Sequence record: NC_049395.1 | Strand: one strand, 5' to 3' | Length of the DNA: 30,584 bases | From: Escherichia phage ESSI2_ev015 | Shown here: in pieces, positions 1 to 30,584 of the stretch | How positions within the stretch are numbered: position 1 is the stretch's first letter | How the letters are laid out: each line of letters starts with the position of its first letter | Program-made: the position numbers and the translations under genes | The notes under the pieces: model-generated | Databases searched by the model: none | What the model was told of the DNA's origin: nothing | What the model saw: only the letters and a program-made list of their open reading frames with translations

Positions 1-15
1 TAGACACGCGTAAGA

Positions 16-48
16 TCGTCGGCAGCGTCAGATGTGTATAAGAGACAG
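16..48 (+). other. Illumina Nextera/Tn5 read-1 adapter with 19-bp mosaic end (library artefact at contig start)
   Basis: Exact string TCGTCGGCAGCGTCAGATGTGTATAAGAGACAG read directly at 16-48; known synthetic adapter sequence. Bases 1-48 should not be treated as biological. Confidence 0.85.
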
Positions 49-200
49 GTAGCGCCGTTTTTGTCTGCGAAAGATTTATTTTGTCGGTGCATCGCTGCGC
101 CAGCGCAGCGCCATGCGCACGATCTTTTATGTGTGTTGCGTTGGGTTAATTTGTTGCCTGAAGTGCTGAGGGCGCGTTCTGCTGCGTATGAGGATGGGTA

Positions 201-20140: not shown

Positions 20141-20410
20141 ATGCGAGTTCTGAAAATCGAATGCCCGGAATGCGGCTCAAAGGCTGTTATTCGTAAAACG
20201 AACAGGAAGCACCGGCAGATTGCGGATATTTACTGCGCCTGTTCAGATGTTGAGTGTGGCCATACGTTTGTTATGAATCTGACGTTCTCCCACACTCTCA
20301 GCCCCAGCGCTAAAACGGGTGATGCGATGGTGCAAAAAATACTGAATGCACTTTCACCCGATCAGCGCCAGATGGCATTAGACCTATTGAAAGCGACTCC
20401 CGCCGCCTGA
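20141..20410 (+). CDS. ogr: Ogr/Delta-family zinc-finger late transcription activator
   Basis: C-P-E-C ... 22 residues ... C-A-C-S-D-V-E-C-G-H-T-F matches the Ogr/Delta C2C2 arrangement. Start placed at ATG 20141 (MRVLKIECPECG, GGAG Shine-Dalgarno); an upstream in-frame ATG at 20087 overlapping the Q stop is an alternative. Confidence 0.6.
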   Translation: MRVLKIECPECGSKAVIRKTNRKHRQIADIYCACSDVECGHTFVMNLTFSHTLSPSAKTGDAMVQKILNALSPDQRQMALDLLKATPAA

Positions 20411-20717: not shown

Positions 20718-22739
20718 CTACAACCACCCCGGCCACAGCTCCTGTAATGGCTCGTTTTGAGTCTCTTTAAGCCGCCCGTTGCGGTATATCAGTGCGCCCT
20801 GACCAAATATCAAACCACTACCCCGCAGGAGAATGGCTATTTCTTCATCAGAACCATCAAAACCCCGACTGCGTAATTCCAGTTTTAACCGTCTGCGGGT
20901 TCCCCCCTCCGTACAGTTATTGACAGAACTCCAAGGGGCGGCGTTGCCGCCAGAAAACCCCGCCTCCGCTGGCGCTTCGGCCAACTTCGCAACCTTTTGC
21001 CACTTAACCAGACGGGTGCAAACTTCTGAATCAGGAACCAAAGGAGAATAAACACCCTGTACGCGCTGCACGTCCTCCGCGTATTCGTTGCCTTGTTCCG
21101 TAATTTCATAGGCCAGACGAACAACCAGATCTCGGCGGGCAACCAGTGCACCTCCCTGCGCCTGGGTATATGCAGCCCAGTCCCCGACATCAGCAGCGGC
21201 CAGAACCGCATCCATTCTGCGATCTGTCAGTACCTGATCCCGCAAACGACGCAGCTCACGCCAGACGGTTACCGGCGCACCACCAATCTGCTGAAACTGG
21301 CGAATACGCCAGCGTGAAGCCCACGCGGAAACGGACTTAGCCATATCACGCAGGTTTTCGCCGGTTTCTTCGTCCTGCTCACCATCCAGCGCAAAACCAT
21401 CAATATTTTTTGAAATGTATTTCGCGATGTAGCCCGTGGCCGAACCTTTGGCGGGATCGATAGCTTCAACATGAAAACGCGCCTTCAGCGCCTTTTCAGA
21501 TTGCAGTTCTTCAGAATCGGTAATTCTGGCGTGATAGCAAAGAATATCGCGTACCGTGTCCACGTCCTGCGGACGCATAAAAAGCAACATATGCCAGTGC
21601 GGTGTCCCGTCATGGTGAGGCTCAACAACCCGAAACCCAAAGACATGAATACCCGCACGCGAGATCGCTGCGCGTGCTTTTGCCCATACGCCGCATAAAT
21701 AGCGCTGGGTATCCTGCGGCGTACATCCATCCCATTGCGATACAAAGCCACCTTTGCTGTGTACTGCGTGGAAACGTGATGGCGCAGTGATGGTGTAAAA
21801 CTCACCGGCCAGCCCTTCTTCATTGGCCATATCTTCAAACCCCCGCATTCTTACCATTAGTTCACATCGACGGATCGCCGGATTTGCAACGCTGCGGTGC
21901 ACCATGCTGTCCAGTGCAATGCGCAGCCCCTCATCATTCAGCAGATCAAACTTTTTAAAGAACTCCAGATTCCGCTTTTTCTGGTCTATCCATTCGCCCA
22001 GTGTTTTGCGGGATACATAAGCGCTGGCCGCTTTTTGTACCTGTCCCACCGCGATGGCCATATGTTCGCGCTGTGTATCACGCGCACGTTTAAGACGCAG
22101 GTACCACCATTCTGGCGCCATCATGCGCAGTATCCCTGATTCCGCCTTACGCATTTCCAGTTGGCCTTCATTGGCTTCGTGTTCAGCCCAGTACGGCGGC
22201 TGGTTATTCAGCATCAGGCAACACGCACAAAGATGGCGGTATGATTCCAGGGTGCGGCGGTGCAGCTCTCTGGCGTCGTCAGTGCCGGAATCAAACTGTT
22301 CGGTGAAGTCATAAAGTGACTGGGAAATCCAGCCAGATACCTGGCCAGCCAGTTTTTTAAGATCAGGACGGTCCAGTGACGGCAAGCGCTCCAGCGACTT
22401 ACCAAAAGGAAGATCAGCAGCGTCAGCGGCCAGCGAGTAACGCGCAGCCACTTTGCGCAGACGTGGCAATACACTCCCGCCGATAGTCTGGCGCAGGAAT
22501 GTATTGGCACGGCGACGCCCGTCACGACCAGCAAACAGCTTTTCGTAACGACGGCCAAAATACCCGGCTAACCAGTCGGGTATCTCATGAAGGTACTGTG
22601 AGCGCCATTCGTAATCCTGCGGGTTAACCGCCCACAGGCGGCGCTCGGTGATCGTGGCGTCTGTAGGCGTACCCGGTGCGAACGTTTCACGCCGCCAGGT
22701 ATCGACGGCGTGATGTTGGCCATTGGCGACAGGAGTCAT
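20718..22739 (-). CDS. A: Replication initiation endonuclease, gpA-like (rolling-circle, HUH-type)
   Basis: 673 aa; contains H-W-H-M-L-L-F (histidine-hydrophobic-histidine) motif; last large gene of the early operon as in P2/186. Confidence 0.8.
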   Translation of the reverse strand: MTPVANGQHHAVDTWRRETFAPGTPTDATITERRLWAVNPQDYEWRSQYLHEIPDWLAGYFGRRYEKLFAGRDGRRRANTFLRQTIGGSVLPRLRKVAARYSLAADAADLPFGKSLERLPSLDRPDLKKLAGQVSGWISQSLYDFTEQFDSGTDDARELHRRTLESYRHLCACCLMLNNQPPYWAEHEANEGQLEMRKAESGILRMMAPEWWYLRLKRARDTQREHMAIAVGQVQKAASAYVSRKTLGEWIDQKKRNLEFFKKFDLLNDEGLRIALDSMVHRSVANPAIRRCELMVRMRGFEDMANEEGLAGEFYTITAPSRFHAVHSKGGFVSQWDGCTPQDTQRYLCGVWAKARAAISRAGIHVFGFRVVEPHHDGTPHWHMLLFMRPQDVDTVRDILCYHARITDSEELQSEKALKARFHVEAIDPAKGSATGYIAKYISKNIDGFALDGEQDEETGENLRDMAKSVSAWASRWRIRQFQQIGGAPVTVWRELRRLRDQVLTDRRMDAVLAAADVGDWAAYTQAQGGALVARRDLVVRLAYEITEQGNEYAEDVQRVQGVYSPLVPDSEVCTRLVKWQKVAKLAEAPAEAGFSGGNAAPWSSVNNCTEGGTRRRLKLELRSRGFDGSDEEIAILLRGSGLIFGQGALIYRNGRLKETQNEPLQELWPGWL

Positions 22740-26324: not shown

Positions 26325-26354
26325 TGTTTGCCTCTCCCTAATCCGTAGGATGGA

Positions 26355-26576
26355 TTACGCGTTAAGCGAAATATTGCATTCGCTTAACGCTTCAACGGTC
26401 AGAGCGGCCATGTTTATTTCCACACGGCCTTTAGGCATTTCTCCTTTGCCACGAATAGGCAGACGGCCATCCCGGATCATGTCACGGGCTGTGCTTTCAG
26501 CTGTATTCGTTAATTTGCACCACTCTTTAAGTGGTAGATAAGGGGCTGGGATGGTGATTGTAATGTTAGGACGCAT
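26355..26576 (-). CDS. Apl/Cox-like small HTH protein (excision/switch regulator)
   Basis: 73 aa, first gene of the early operon, divergent from the repressor; helix-turn-helix-like segment KEWCKLTNTAESTARDMIRDGRLP. Confidence 0.5.
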   Translation of the reverse strand: MRPNITITIPAPYLPLKEWCKLTNTAESTARDMIRDGRLPIRGKGEMPKGRVEINMAALTVEALSECNISLNA

Positions 26577-26710
26577 AAGGCAAACTCCCGTATTCGGTTG
26601 AATGCAGCAACATTCAACAACATTCGATTTAAACTACAACACGGAGAGACTCTACTTCGACTTAATCGAGAAATCAACAGTATTTCGATTTAATCGAGAG
26701 AGCTAGCGAT
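26577..26710. promoter_or_regulatory. Immunity switch region (divergent early/lysogenic promoters and operators)
   Basis: 134-bp intergenic region between divergent apl-like and cI-like genes; three copies of TTCGAYTTAA (26623, 26656, 26684), two extended to 16-bp repeats TTCGA(C/T)TTAATCGAGA with near-palindromic core; tandem 10-bp repeat CAACATTC(A/G)A at 26608-26627. Confidence 0.5.
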
Positions 26711-27298
26711 ATGAGCAAATTCCCTTTTGAGCAGATAGGGCACAGCAGCGACGTGCTTGATCGAGTAGTAGAGGCTTACGGCTTCACTTCAAAGCTACAG
26801 CTTGCGGAACATTTCGATATGGCCTCAAGTAGCCTTTCCGCAAGGTTTAAACGAGGAATATTCCCGGCTGATATGGTGGTTCGCTGCGTAGCAGAAACCG
26901 GGGCGTCTCTTGAGTGGCTATCTACTGGCCAGGGGAAGAAATTCGATGATGATCAGTTAGACATCATGAAATTTCCCCGTAAAAAATTAGTTGATGGCCA
27001 GCTCTATGACTCTGGTTACGCAATGTTCGATAAAGTTTTTTTCAGGGCAGGAGCGCCACTCCCCGCAGCACCTTTCTGCGTACTAGATGAAAAAGCGCAG
27101 TACATCCTAGACCAGAAATTTTCCGAGGTTTTTGATGGCGAATGGCTGGTAAATATCGAAGGAAAAACCAGTATCAGAACGCTGACACGCATCCCGGTAA
27201 AAAAGGTACGCGTCAGTGGTGTTGGCATGGCTTTTGACTGTGGGCTGGAAGATATCGAAATTATCGGCCGCGTGGTCATGACGATAACAAACGCATAA
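26711..27298 (+). CDS. cI: CI-like immunity repressor
   Basis: 195 aa (186 CI is ~192 aa as I recall), immediately upstream of and overlapping int (TAATG); divergent from the early operon. Confidence 0.6.
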   Translation: MSKFPFEQIGHSSDVLDRVVEAYGFTSKLQLAEHFDMASSSLSARFKRGIFPADMVVRCVAETGASLEWLSTGQGKKFDDDQLDIMKFPRKKLVDGQLYDSGYAMFDKVFFRAGAPLPAAPFCVLDEKAQYILDQKFSEVFDGEWLVNIEGKTSIRTLTRIPVKKVRVSGVGMAFDCGLEDIEIIGRVVMTITNA

Positions 27299-28359
27299 TG
27301 GGCATCAGAAAACAGCCGGACGGGAAATGGTTGCTGGACTTTTACCCGGAAGGAAAACCCCAGGGAAAAGCCAGCAAGCGCATCCGCAAGACGTTCTCCA
27401 CCAAAGGCGAGGCGCTAGCCTACCAAAATCACATTATGGAAAACGTCCATGTAAAGCCCTGGCTTGACGGTAAAGAGGATCGGAGAAAGCTACGCGACTT
27501 AGTAAACCAATGGTTCGATGAACATGGTGTGACGCTTGACGATGGCGAAAAACGTAAAGGCGCAATGGAATTTGCGTGTCAAAGCATGGGTGATCCGCTG
27601 GCGCATGAATTTGACGCCACGATGTTTTCGCTTTATCGCAAAAAACGTTTATCCGGTGAAATATCCAGAACAGCGCGTGTAAAACAAGTCGCTCCCAGAA
27701 CCATGAATTTAGAACTGGCCTATTTTCGTGCCGTGTTTAATGAGCTTAAGCGCTTAGGACATTGGAAATCTGAAAACCCCCTGTCTAACGTTCGCCCCTT
27801 TAAATCTGAGGAAGCTGAACTGGCTTATTTGGAACATGATGAAATCGAACGATTGTTATCCGAATGTTCGAAAAGTCGAAACGCCAGCACTTACTGGGTT
27901 GCATGTTTATGCCTGATAACCGGCGCTCGCTGGGATGAAGCGGAATCATTAACGACTAAGCAAATCAGAAACCTAAAAGTCAGCTTTTTTAAAACTAAAG
28001 GGAACAGGAACAGAACTGTTCCAATCAGCCAGGACTTTTATGACGCATTGCCGAAACCAGAAAAACCAGGGCGTTTTTTTACACCCTGCTATTCGGCCTT
28101 TCGCAAAGCCGTAGAGCGTGCGGAACTCGACTTACCTGATGGCCAATTGTCACATGTGCTACGACACACTTTCGCCAGTCACTTTATGATGAACGGCGGG
28201 AACATTCTGGTTTTAAAAGAGATACTGGGACACACTGACATTAAAATGACCATGCGTTACGCGCATTTCGCTCCAAGCCATTTGCAGGAAGCCATAACGC
28301 TAAACCCTTTGGGACAAAATGCCCCTTTTCTGTCCCCTCAGGACTCAAACATCCAATAA
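27298..28359 (+). CDS. int: Tyrosine-type integrase
   Basis: 353 aa; C-terminal catalytic region HVLRHTFASHFMMNGGNILVLKEILGHTDIKMTMRYAHF (R...H-x-x-R...Y signature); adjacent to the att core. Confidence 0.9.
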   Translation: MGIRKQPDGKWLLDFYPEGKPQGKASKRIRKTFSTKGEALAYQNHIMENVHVKPWLDGKEDRRKLRDLVNQWFDEHGVTLDDGEKRKGAMEFACQSMGDPLAHEFDATMFSLYRKKRLSGEISRTARVKQVAPRTMNLELAYFRAVFNELKRLGHWKSENPLSNVRPFKSEEAELAYLEHDEIERLLSECSKSRNASTYWVACLCLITGARWDEAESLTTKQIRNLKVSFFKTKGNRNRTVPISQDFYDALPKPEKPGRFFTPCYSAFRKAVERAELDLPDGQLSHVLRHTFASHFMMNGGNILVLKEILGHTDIKMTMRYAHFAPSHLQEAITLNPLGQNAPFLSPQDSNIQ

Positions 28360-28432
28360 CATTCAATAATATTCGTTGTGTAACTTTCTGATTTATCTGT
28401 AAGTTATTGTTTTTAAATGATGGTGCATCGTT

Positions 28433-28477
28433 CTCATAATCGCTTGGTCGCTGGTTCAAGTCCAGCAGGGGCCACCA
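28433..28477 (+). tRNA. 3' 45-nt fragment of a tRNA-Ile (CAU anticodon, ileX/ileY-like) = prophage att core copy
   Basis: CTCATAATCGCTTGGTCGCTGGTTCAAGTCCAGCAGGGGCCACCA: anticodon loop, T-arm (GGTTCAAGTCC) and acceptor 3' strand with CCA, but no 5' half upstream; matches my recollection of E. coli tRNA-Ile2. 74 bp downstream of the int stop. Confidence 0.6.
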
Positions 28478-28506
28478 AATTTTAGCTTTAAAATCATATA
28501 ATTAAA

Positions 28507-28531
28507 CCACTTCTAACGGAGTGGTTTTTTT
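28507..28531 (+). terminator. Rho-independent terminator downstream of the tRNA fragment
   Basis: Hairpin CCACTTC-taac-GGAGTGG followed by TTTTTTT. Confidence 0.55.
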
Positions 28532-28695
28532 GTTTATAGTGGTCAGTGTCCCCTTTTTGTCCCCTCACTTTCACCCACACTCATCTATACCTCAGTTGTT
28601 AGCACTTCACCGAACCATGACGATTGAACGCTTTGCGCTTTTTTTACATACTGTTTCAATCTCATTTGCCAATAATTTTTAGTCAGGATGACAAT

Positions 28696-29322
28696 ATGAC
28701 TTCGTACAATGAACTGAAAGAATGTATCCGCCTTGAAGTCATTGGCCATGACAAATCCTTTTCATGGCGTAAAGCGTTACTTCGTACCCGACGCAACCAG
28801 AAGAAGCACTTCCTGTTCTGGTGGCGTATTGCTTCATGGCTCTATGCCCAGAATAGTAAGTTCAAAAAGCGCATTGCCCGCAGGATTGAAAACCGCCTCA
28901 AGTACCGGCACAGCGTTGATATTTCGCTGTCATGCAAAATCGGCAAGGGTTTAAACATTGCTCATCTAAACGGCATTGTGATTACTGACAATTGCGTGAT
29001 TGGTGATTTCGCCGACCTGAAGCAAGGCATCACCATAGGGTTACGCACCGACAGTGCCGACGCGATGATAGTCATTGGTGATCGTGTTGATATTGGCTGT
29101 AACTCGTCCATTCTGGGCGGCAAGGTTACGATCGGAAACAATGTCACCATTGGTGCGCATTCGCTAGTGCTTCAGAACATCCCCAGCGACACCGTTTATA
29201 AAAACAAGATCACGCCAGTGTATACATCCAAACTACCGCAGACGGAATATCAGGAAAAGCAGCCTTTTGTCACTGGCAATGCGACAAAAGAAGCGTCCCG
29301 TTCCGCAGAAGCAGTGCTGTAA
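28696..29322 (+). CDS. Hexapeptide-repeat acetyltransferase, serine acetyltransferase (CysE/WcaB)-like
   Basis: Track start is TTG; ATG at 28696 with AGGATGA upstream. Left-handed beta-helix hexapeptide repeats (IGKGLNIAHLNGIVITDNCVIGDFADLKQGITIG...) preceded by a WRIASWLY-type helix as in the CysE family; low-GC region. Confidence 0.65.
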   Translation: MTSYNELKECIRLEVIGHDKSFSWRKALLRTRRNQKKHFLFWWRIASWLYAQNSKFKKRIARRIENRLKYRHSVDISLSCKIGKGLNIAHLNGIVITDNCVIGDFADLKQGITIGLRTDSADAMIVIGDRVDIGCNSSILGGKVTIGNNVTIGAHSLVLQNIPSDTVYKNKITPVYTSKLPQTEYQEKQPFVTGNATKEASRSAEAVL

Positions 29323-29531
29323 TTTCGCTGAACAAATTTCAGTTGTGAAGATTTCATAAATTTACGTGCAGCCCGCGCCAGTTCTTACAAGCGGGCTTAT
29401 CTCTATAATCTCTGGCTTACCACGATCCACACCGCCTAAAATCTAAAGTTGATATGCAGCCTATGAGGATAGATAATCAGTTTGTGGCTTGTTTTACGTT
29501 ATAACTAAATCTTATTAAAAGAGGTATTTAA

Positions 29532-29846
29532 ATGAACTTAAACAATAACCCTACAGTAAGCCAACTCTCACAACTAATCTCTGTTTGCGACGATAACGCA
29601 GGTCATCATATTCTTTGGGTATCTAAATCTGGCGATGTAGCAGTTACACAAATAAATGATTTGTCTCCAATTGGCTTTGAAGAAAACACCCCATCAATGG
29701 CAATGCGTTATGAAACTTTCCAACGTGGAAATGACTATGTTGGAAAAAATGCAGCAGAAGATGCAACTCACATGGAAAGACTACTTAGAGATTTGCTAAA
29801 CGAATGGCCATTATATAACGGCAATCGTGTACGGTACATTGGCTAA
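29532..29846 (+). CDS. Hypothetical protein (104 aa), first gene of an AT-rich two-gene cassette
   Basis: ATG with AAGAGG Shine-Dalgarno; AT-rich codon usage distinct from the prophage; no recognisable motif. Confidence 0.5.
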   Translation: MNLNNNPTVSQLSQLISVCDDNAGHHILWVSKSGDVAVTQINDLSPIGFEENTPSMAMRYETFQRGNDYVGKNAAEDATHMERLLRDLLNEWPLYNGNRVRYIG

Positions 29847-29861
29847 TAAAAAAGGTGGGGT

Positions 29862-30230
29862 ATGGCAACCAATTGTTATGTAAGAGTTTTAGATAATAAC
29901 ACTAAACGTGTCTATGATGTTGGGCCATTTATTAATAGCGGTAATGAGGCCTTCTCTGGAGCAGATAGCGCCATAAATTGGATTTACAAACAAATTGGCT
30001 TAGTCAAAATACAATATCCAGAATCAACTTTAATAAAGCATAAATGGGATTATGTTAAAGATGATTTTTATGGCCCTACTGCTGATGTAAAAGTTGAAAT
30101 ATCAAACTTTATTTTTGAGATTTTTAAACTGCTACCTGCTGACACTCAAAATGTAATTAATGAACAAATTACAGATAATTTGCCCACATGGTACAAAGAT
30201 GAAAAAGAAAGTCATATTGATGAAAATTGA
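29862..30230 (+). CDS. Hypothetical protein (122 aa), second gene of the AT-rich cassette
   Basis: ATG 15 nt after the upstream stop with AAGGTGG Shine-Dalgarno; no recognisable motif. Confidence 0.5.
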   Translation: MATNCYVRVLDNNTKRVYDVGPFINSGNEAFSGADSAINWIYKQIGLVKIQYPESTLIKHKWDYVKDDFYGPTADVKVEISNFIFEIFKLLPADTQNVINEQITDNLPTWYKDEKESHIDEN

Positions 30231-30300
30231 TTACCTATTGGCGCACTTAAAGTGTAGGTATGCTAATTTCACTTTCTGAATTTAATCTAATCCCCCTAAA

Positions 30301-30331
30301 ACCCGCACCACAACTGGCATTGCGGGTTTTT
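30301..30331 (+). terminator. Possible terminator after the two-gene cassette
   Basis: Stem ACCCGCA/TGCGGGT with a long 13-nt loop followed by TTTTT, ~70 nt after the stop at 30230; loop length is atypical. Confidence 0.3.
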
Positions 30332-30584
30332 CCTCCTACACATTGCCTTCGACATTTGATCTTCTCCACTCCACAAAAAATACAATTTATTATTGTATTT
30401 CAATTGCTTGCCTTTCCACTTAGATCCTTTACAGATCCTCTAAACTGAAAAATGCTGAAATTCTTTTCAATCTTTTCAGTTCCTGTTCTTTGGCAAGCAG
30501 CCAACCGTGGCGCGGTCTGGCGGTGCTGTTTGTAGAAAAATAAAACTGAAAAAATTTCCAGATCCAGAAACCGCAGGCGGGTGC

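Follow-up and report, generated by a model that had tools for sequence, protein, structure and literature searches.

In the genome record of Escherichia phage ESSI2_ev015 (NC_049395.1), the 3' part of a tRNA-Ile(CAU) gene lies directly behind the gene for a tyrosine integrase (Int), which raises the question whether this site is one end of an integrated prophage, with host chromosome on its far side, or the attachment site of a free phage (attP). The analysis covered the whole stretch of 30,584 bp, hereafter called the window. An earlier note on this DNA had placed the right prophage boundary at the tRNA fragment and had predicted an intact tRNA-Ile at the left junction, beyond the contig. We arrive at another answer: with a probability of about 0.88, a temperate phage of the Peduoviridae has its complete attP at window 28311-28567, and the window is one whole unintegrated phage genome. 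As part of this reading, sequence comparison suggests that the phage carries a cox-cI-int-att module of the 186 family on an ESSI2_ev040/Quadragintavirus-like backbone. The case is built on the features of the sequence (Table 1), on their colinearity with the annotated attP of phage 186, on natural left and right prophage junctions (attL and attR) in relatives, and on the phage origin of both flanks of the tRNA fragment; protein binding at the proposed sites is deduced from these.

The attachment core

The fragment is the 45-mer CTCATAATCGCTTGGTCGCTGGTTCAAGTCCAGCAGGGGCCACCA, which occurs in a single copy, on the plus strand at 28433-28477. All 45/45 nucleotides agree with positions 32-76, the first base of the anticodon loop through CCA, of ileX, a tRNA-Ile(CAU) gene annotated in E. 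coli MG1655. With ileY of the same strain the fragment shares 44/45 positions, the sole mismatch being G versus A at tRNA position 67, and the identity with the ileY bacterial attachment site (attB) runs 3 nt (AAT) past the core, to 28480. Upstream of C32 the alignment shows no likeness to the 5' half of the tRNA, and ARAGORN found 0 tRNAs in the entire 30.6-kb window. The match to tRNA-Ile2 from anticodon loop to CCA, lacking a 5' half, which the earlier note had recognised from the letters, is thus exact with respect to ileX and confirmed by alignment in its missing half. No match to the 45-mer at three or fewer mismatches appeared in 100 shuffles. A search of Rfam with 28200-28700 at E<=10 gave noise and no tRNA match, which says nothing for or against the tRNA match because a truncated copy is not scored by Rfam.

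The position of the fragment is that of a tRNA-3'-end core of a tyrosine integrase, as the earlier note had proposed: the target is tRNA-Ile(CAU), and int lies directly upstream in the expected orientation. The distance of 74 bp from the int stop needs a slight correction, the AT-rich spacer between the stop of the open reading frame (ORF) at 28359 and the core being 73 nt long (28360-28432). The same fragment stands on the same strand downstream of related integrases in 44/80 bacterial-genome loci and in 42/80 IMG/VR loci. A second copy of the core, which the earlier note meant to use for finding the other prophage end and whose absence it held to speak against integration here, does not occur in the window; a single copy is what is expected, because an attP predicts exactly one.

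Homology with the tRNA begins exactly at 28433, the start of the motif CTCATAA, which the 186 record annotates as 'predicted crossover region' (21023-21029). In E. coli GF131, which carries an integrated relative, the tRNA positions at which phage and host differ, 67 and 70, have segregated between attL and attR, and the crossover therefore lies 5' of position 67; its exact point in the anticodon loop we infer by analogy with 186. Four T-arm differences in the core of a Kluyvera locus (L007) were considered for placing the crossover and dropped, since the same variant core stands next to a phage-type P' arm at another locus (L094) and its origin is ambiguous. A sigma-70-like promoter match at 28412-28440 (TTTAAA, 17 nt, CATAAT), in which the anticodon loop of the core supplies the -10 hexamer, is probably due to chance, with 3 sites versus 1.5 expected in a 1-kb scan.

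Phage and host junctions

The relative in GF131 is deleted and integrated at ileY, and both of its junctions are readable. Its attL consists of an intact tRNA followed by a window-like P' arm (window 28478-28570), including the terminator and the TGTCCCCTTTTTGTCCCC repeats, and is 87% identical to window 28433-28570. Its attR consists of a window-like int 3' end, P arm and core (window 28315-28480), followed by host DNA, i.e., the DNA downstream of ileY in MG1655 and then ypjC. The window joins the left part of such an attR to the right part of such an attL and is therefore an attP. A small element at an IMG/VR locus (L199) is built in the same way, having the tRNA and a TGTCCCC-type P' arm on one side and a TGCCCCC-type P arm and core on the other. 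A true attR is found in Kluyvera intermedia L007, where the Int is 92% identical and the same 73-nt spacer and core are followed by an ileX-type host terminator. In the window, the DNA distal to the core is a phage P' arm and cargo, not host chromosome.

The terminator behind the core belongs to this phage DNA. The hairpin (28504-28527) and the T run after it score as a terminator and have an RNA fold of -15 kcal/mol (z = -4.2), a stability that none of the shuffles reaches. With the terminator included, the 57 nt that follow CCA are 94% identical to the attP of BIS20, PHB48 and vB_YenM_06.16-2, all Eganvirus (186-type) phages (match 28433-28535), and the homologous hairpin in the 186 record is annotated 'predicted terminator of lysogenic operon', i.e., of cI-int. 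In the empty host sites that were compared, it is not downstream of either ileY or ileX of MG1655. The earlier note was thus right that a terminator follows the fragment, although this is part of the phage's own P' arm and not the terminator of a host tRNA gene. Judged by these likenesses, it would serve as the end of the cI-int operon in the phage and, in a lysogen, as terminator of the rebuilt tRNA-Ile gene. The comparison with the empty site that the note had recommended gives a divided result: the core matches MG1655 ileY/ileX, but the right flank of the window and its terminator are not there.

In two lysogens the rebuilt ileY genes are host/phage hybrids (675SK2, L002 3970-4045; GF131, L006 19970-20045). 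E. coli 675SK2, a 186-type lysogen, has U6 opposite the phage-derived G67, a wobble that replaces the A-U pair of MG1655 ileY; the attL tRNA of GF131 additionally has A at position 70, opposite C3. ARAGORN calls both hybrid genes as tRNAs, labelled Met because of their CAU anticodon. In MG1655 (2783065-2785011, L005), the invertase pseudogene pinH and ypjB/ypjC lie downstream of ileY, which suggests that the 'empty' ileY site of K-12 is itself flanked by old mobile-element debris.

Ends of the genome

How the window begins and ends bears on the same question. In the prophage of E. coli MFDS1019527 (L001), an acetyltransferase gene is followed by a match to window 30423-30584 and then directly by window ~49 onward, which continues through the tail genes at 96% identity. 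The deleted relative in GF131 passes from window 30420-30584 to window 49-85, and in the record of phage ESSI2_ev040, positions 29339-29623 correspond to window 30299-30584 and positions 29630-29700 to window 13-81. The record of Cronobacter phage ESSI-2 ends at most 7 nt from the end point of the window. This continuity from end to start in relatives means that the window is a unit-length phage genome and that both flanks of the core are phage DNA. The length also agrees, with 30,584 bp in the window versus 30,597 bp in ESSI2_ev040 (Peduoviridae). The right prophage boundary of the earlier note has to be given up, as the end runs into the start in three independent relatives.

Positions 1-48 of the window are non-biological and missing from the integrated relative in MFDS1019527. 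We take them to be Illumina sequence, composed of a P5 tail, a Nextera i5 index and a Nextera read-1 adapter: the portion TAGACAC would be the P5 tail with one mismatch, GCGTAAGA presumably index S517/N517, and TCGTCGGCAGCGTCAGATGTGTATAAGAGACAG at 16-48 presumably the read-1 adapter. Given this adapter, the contig start is an assembly or molecule end. An intact tRNA-Ile beyond the contig, as had been predicted, is not expected of a whole phage with an adapter at its start. The public record of ESSI2_ev040 has the same adapter embedded at about 29630-29680.

Where the genome ends (…GCAGGCGGGTGC / GGTGTAGCGCC…, at the join of window 30560-30584 to 49-70), the sequence loosely resembles the cos 19-mer of P2/186, agreeing by eye at ~10 of 19 positions; a search for the 186 cos 19-mer with three or fewer mismatches found no match. 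The end point may represent cos in this phage group; the site would then lie between the att-side cargo and the tail genes and not beside the portal gene.

Table 1. Features of the attachment site, its module and the adjoining cargo (window coordinates)
Feature	Coordinates	Strand	Basis or remark
Cox/Apl-like excisionase-repressor gene, 73 aa, first of early lytic operon	26358..26576	-	PHROG, Pfam
Two AACATTC repeats 10 nt apart, candidate Cox/Apl-like operators	26609..26625	+	switch, intergenic between cox-like gene and cI
CI-type repressor gene, co-transcribed with int	26711..27298	+	Pfam Phage_CI_repr, Phage_CI_C; cI-int order as in 186
Tyrosine integrase gene, 353 aa, 186 family	27298..28359	+	Pfam Int_N, Phage_integrase; phrog_1 integrase
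P-arm candidate Int arm-type sites	28311..28340	+	inside last codons of int
Candidate Cox/Apl-like sites, three 10-nt phased direct repeats AACATCCAAT AACATTCAAT AATATTCGTT	28348..28377	+	
IHF (integration host factor) consensus match AATCAGAAAGTTA (WATCARNNNNTTR)	28381..28393	-	perfect match
att core, tRNA-Ile(CAU) positions 32-76	28433..28477	+	identity to ileX/ileY
Anticodon loop CTCATAA, predicted 7-bp crossover (overlap) region	28433..28439	+	homology with 186 record
AT-rich segment 3' of CCA, position of second 186 IHF footprint	28478..28503	.	colinear with 186 20959-20985
Intrinsic terminator, phage-borne	28504..28535	+	hairpin fold, likeness to Eganvirus
P'-arm candidate Int arm-type sites, direct pair TGTCCCCT/TGTCCCCT, 10 nt apart	28547..28567	+	repeats
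Cargo on P' side: acetyltransferase and two orphan ORFs	28696..30230	+	Pfam, PHROG

Arm-type repeats and the integrase

The Int of the window is 59% identical to that of 186 over 338 aa (E 2e-154). On the P arm, a direct pair TGCCCCT/TGTCCCCT occupies 28320-28340, with an inverted copy GGGACAAAA at 28311-28319. The pair pattern TGYCCCC has only two zero-mismatch occurrences in the window, at 28320 and 28547, i.e., one to the left and one to the right of the core. The P-arm pair is kept ~113 nt before the core by every relative whose Int is 78-92% identical, and the P' pair is found at the same distance after the core in the attL of GF131 as in the window; among IMG/VR loci with the Ile core, 17 have TGTCCCCTTTTTGTCCCC at +111 to +114 nt, counted from the start of the core. 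When the window is aligned with 186 and BIS20, both pairs are colinear with the 186 arm sites. The TGYCCCC pairs are thus likely candidates, by sequence, for the arm-type sites of Int. The earlier note had sought the arm sites in the AT-rich spacer; the candidates probably lie elsewhere, inside the 3' end of int and past the terminator, while the spacer most likely holds Cox/Apl-like repeats and an IHF site, as their sequences indicate.

Other Int lineages at the same core have other arm repeats, i.e., TGGCAGC, TGTCGCA and the 186-type TGGCGRT, and across relatives the N-terminal strand of Int that binds the arms changes along with the type of the flanking repeat. The strand after a conserved Trp reads WLLDFY in the window (TGYCCCC), WQAQVF with TGGCAGC, W(V/L)ADFY with TGTCGCA and WICELY in 186. 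The discriminating residues proposed by Nilsson et al. agree with this co-variation (PMC3448106), which is correlative and in line with the repeats serving as arm sites. We tentatively hypothesize, while holding it to be rather doubtful, that 186-family integrases with a single tRNA-Ile CAU target have diversified into at least four arm-site specificities. As elements of different classes repeatedly stand in tandem at this tRNA, this could keep the integration and excision complexes of co-resident elements orthogonal and the elements independently excisable despite their identical cores. If this were true, the TGYCCCC class would be represented in the window by a free phage whose P-arm sites lie inside an extension of the int reading frame.

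What seem to be tandem arrays, built from unrelated elements, were seen at the same tRNA in L008 (7180-8500), L009, L094, L097, L171, L174, L187, L199, L201 and L215. In such arrays, an int with one arm-repeat type and the Ile core are followed by a P' arm of a different type, e.g., a TGYCCCC P arm followed by 186-type GAGTGGCGATGAAATGGCG, or TGTCCCC after a P arm of the TGGCAGC or TGTCGCA type, and in L008 a homologue of 186 B/ogr lies 1.2 kb beyond the core. Two exact TGTCCCCTTTTTGTCCCC copies, 171 nt apart, were present in seven further IMG/VR contigs (L185, L193, L198, L209, L211, L227 and L228; 28-44 kb where not truncated). With no tRNA-Ile core between the copies, these contigs apparently hold the intact attP of another phage group with a different core.

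Excisionase-type repeats and IHF sites

The 73-aa gene at the head of the early lytic operon matches phrog_575 'Cox-like excisionase and repressor' (E 2.7e-25) and weakly Pfam HTH_17. The three phased repeats at 28348-28377 have the same core-relative position as the five Apl sites of 186. With two or fewer mismatches, the phased pair AACATTCnnnAACATTC occurs only at 26609-26625 and in the P arm of att (28348-28374), versus 0.31 expected. Such a dual location of binding sites, at att and at the switch, has been published for Apl of 186 and Cox of P2 (PMC7498355). A motif common to att and the switch is also found in the Erwinia loci L009 and L097, with 13 shared 7-mers versus a background maximum of 3.

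The IHF consensus match in the spacer lies inside the interval that corresponds to the IHF footprint 21057-21086 of 186. In the AT-rich segment 3' of CCA, only a consensus match with one mismatch was found, by eye.

Weighing the alternatives

Beside the attP of a free phage, the arrangement could be a junction of a tandem array in a chromosome, in which int, P arm and core of one element are followed by the P' arm and cargo of a resident element or of a second copy. Arrays of this kind are common at this tRNA, being seen in Erwinia L008/L009 and in eight IMG/VR loci. Several observations nevertheless make such a junction improbable here. The two ends of the window meet at a single phage coordinate, give or take a few bases, and do not overlap, and its unit length goes together with a library adapter at the start, whereas a chromosomal contig broken at a repeat would be expected to overlap or to enter host or neighbouring DNA. 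Moreover, the P and P' repeats of the window are of the same cognate type, unlike those of the heterologous arrays.

Less probable still, and in our estimate very unlikely, is the view that the window is cut at the attR of an integrated prophage, so that its right side would be host chromosome and an intact tRNA-Ile would lie beyond its left end. The order of int, spacer, tRNA 3' fragment and terminator is admittedly also that of an attR, as in Kluyvera L007 and at the right junction of GF131, and the window itself holds no intact tRNA. The DNA to the right of the core, however, is 94% identical to Eganvirus attP and 87% identical to the attL of GF131 through the TGTCCCC repeats, is unlike the DNA downstream of MG1655 ileY or ileX, and leads into the acetyltransferase gene and a last stretch of 160-290 nt that is contiguous with the window start and the tail genes in the MFDS1019527 prophage, ESSI2_ev040 and GF131. 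It is extremely improbable that the fragment resembles a tRNA by chance, or is what remains of a decayed and non-functional one, and plays no part in recombination. The match is an exact 45-mer, of which zero are expected by chance; its position behind related integrases is conserved across dozens of genomes and viral contigs; natural attL/attR pairs are built on it in GF131 and L199; and the homologous 186 site has been characterised experimentally (PMC7498355).

Some of the results weigh against a complete attP in a whole free phage genome. The window ends share no terminal repeat or exact overlap, and the circularity of the sequence is deduced from relatives. The P-side arm repeats lie within coding sequence, and part of their conservation could be at the protein level. 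The IHF consensus match is weak evidence, as the window contains 5 such matches versus 2.1 expected. Among ten relatives compared with the window, sharing of a motif between att and the switch was clear only in L009/L097 and the window itself and partial in L095, and no sharing was seen in L007 and L089, where the assumed switch coordinates may be wrong; the comparison is only partly informative because immunity modules and switch coordinates differ. Finally, no lysogen with exactly this integrase was found, with 0/5,426 complete E. coli genomes positive at megablast sensitivity. Among 50,697 phage records, too, megablast with the cI-int-att block found no close int copy; in both searches only the tRNA/terminator piece and weak int fragments matched. 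The literature on the ESSI2_ev phages contained nothing useful for the attachment-site question.

Cargo beside the attachment site

On the P' side, the reading frame 28696-29322 encodes a hexapeptide acetyltransferase of 208 aa from the ATG at 28696 (Pfam Hexapep, phrog_2154), and the AT-rich ORFs 29532-29846 (104 aa) and 29862-30230 (122 aa) match nothing in Pfam or PHROG. Linkage of the acetyltransferase gene to the same tail genes recurs in the MFDS1019527 prophage, and ESSI2_ev040 also has the gene. The contents of the slot between attP and the genome end vary, in the manner of a moron/defence-type slot: it holds an abortive-infection gene and a serine acetyltransferase gene in ESSI2_ev040 and genes for an AAA ATPase and the acetyltransferase in the MFDS1019527 prophage.

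Comparison with known phages

Phage 186 integrates into ileY/ileX (PMC3448106), in agreement with its GenBank annotation. Around its truncated tRNA-Ile, that record marks Int arm-type sites with the consensus YAYCGCCAYTY (three on the side of int, two on the opposite side), together with two IHF footprints, five Apl sites and a stretch of 36 bp shared with ileY, whose length is explained by the G/A difference at tRNA position 67. The window resembles 186 in the gene order apl(cox)-like, cI, int, attP, in the tRNA-Ile(CAU) core with the same predicted crossover, in the nearly identical phage-borne terminator after the core, in the order of features (arm repeats, phased excisionase repeats, IHF, core, IHF, terminator, arm repeats) and in the duplication of the excisionase-type repeats in the pR-pL switch. 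It differs in the arm sequences, which are TGYCCCC(T) in the window and YAYCGCCAYTY / tgccGCCActt in 186, and no repeat of the GCCAC type, the 186 consensus, was found around the window core. The phased motif is AACATTC with three att copies, versus five in 186, and the tRNA identity starts at position 32 in the window and at 31 in 186. The window also lacks Orf69 between int and att, so that its P-arm repeats overlap a 15-codon C-terminal extension of int. Behind attP, the window has cargo and the genome end, whereas 186 has B/ogr and the tail genes (D-U-T).

The likeness to 186 is confined to part of the genome, as the genome-wide synteny with Eganvirus that was looked for was not found, and the backbone resembles that of ESSI2_ev040 (Quadragintavirus). 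Between 241 and 26327 the window and ESSI2_ev040 are 98% identical; this identity stops at 26327 and weak similarity resumes from 30299, with the cox-cI-int-attP-cargo block at ~26328-30298 exchanged. ESSI2_ev040 has repeats of the TGGCGAC type in this block and no Ile core. ESSI-2 (Seongnamvirus) is ~77% identical over the structural genes and has P2-type TGTCCAC arm repeats at the same place; its core is presumably the 3' end of tmRNA (transfer-messenger RNA, ssrA). In both phages, as in the window, int, attP and cargo stand at the right end, and the genome ends at the same point. Directly after the portal gene, at 20141-20410, the window has an Ogr/B/Delta-like ORF with a zinc finger (CPECG…CSDVECGH), whereas in P2 and 186 the Ogr/B/Delta homologue lies beside attP.

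Islands and satellites that target tRNA genes, e.g., P4 at leuX, carry the 3' part of the tRNA, and their integration regenerates the gene. P4-type islands differ from the window in having an integrase of another lineage and another tRNA. The attP of P2 has the arm consensus tgTGGaCa, two direct arm repeats on each side and a dual Cox excisionase/repressor (PMC3448106). The window likewise has two direct arm repeats per side and a Cox-type gene for a dual excisionase/repressor, and its repeat, read on the other strand as AGGGGACA, is one core position off the P2 consensus. P2-type integrases use mostly non-tRNA targets with short cores (PMC3448106), whereas the Int of the window clusters with that of 186 and targets a tRNA gene.

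Proposed mechanism and implications

In the mechanism that we propose, Int (27298-28359) would bind the TGYCCCC pairs on both arms, 28320-28340 and 28547-28567, while IHF would bend the DNA, and Int would pair the 45-bp core with the host tRNA-Ile(CAU) gene, ileY or ileX, for strand exchange within the 7-bp anticodon loop at 28433-28439. The attL would then consist of the host 5' half of the tRNA gene, the phage-supplied positions 32-76 and the phage terminator, leaving the gene for the AUA-decoding tRNA intact, and integration at ileY would create the U6-G67 wobble seen in 675SK2. The displaced host 3' fragment would lie beside int in attR. Excision would need the Cox/Apl-like protein (26358-26576) acting on the AACATTC repeats at 28348-28377, the same repeats being present in the pR-pL switch. 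The predicted prophage would begin with ileY, terminator, acetyltransferase, small ORFs and the joined end and start of the window, and would continue with tail, head, replication, cox, cI, int, 3' fragment and host DNA; this order is kept in the GF131 remnant.

The arrangement is ordinary and well understood; what is new is this int, of which the searched phages and E. coli genomes hold no high-identity copy. The annotation is corrected to a whole phage genome in attP form instead of a prophage with a host flank, and the integration target, ileY/ileX, as well as the future prophage order become predictable, with the acetyltransferase cargo right behind the rebuilt tRNA gene. The window, ESSI2_ev040 and ESSI-2 each have a different att module, and the cox-cI-int-att block is in this respect a cassette that moves between P2-like backbones. 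The phage thus offers a natural variant for the study of how the arm-binding domains of integrases read their sites.

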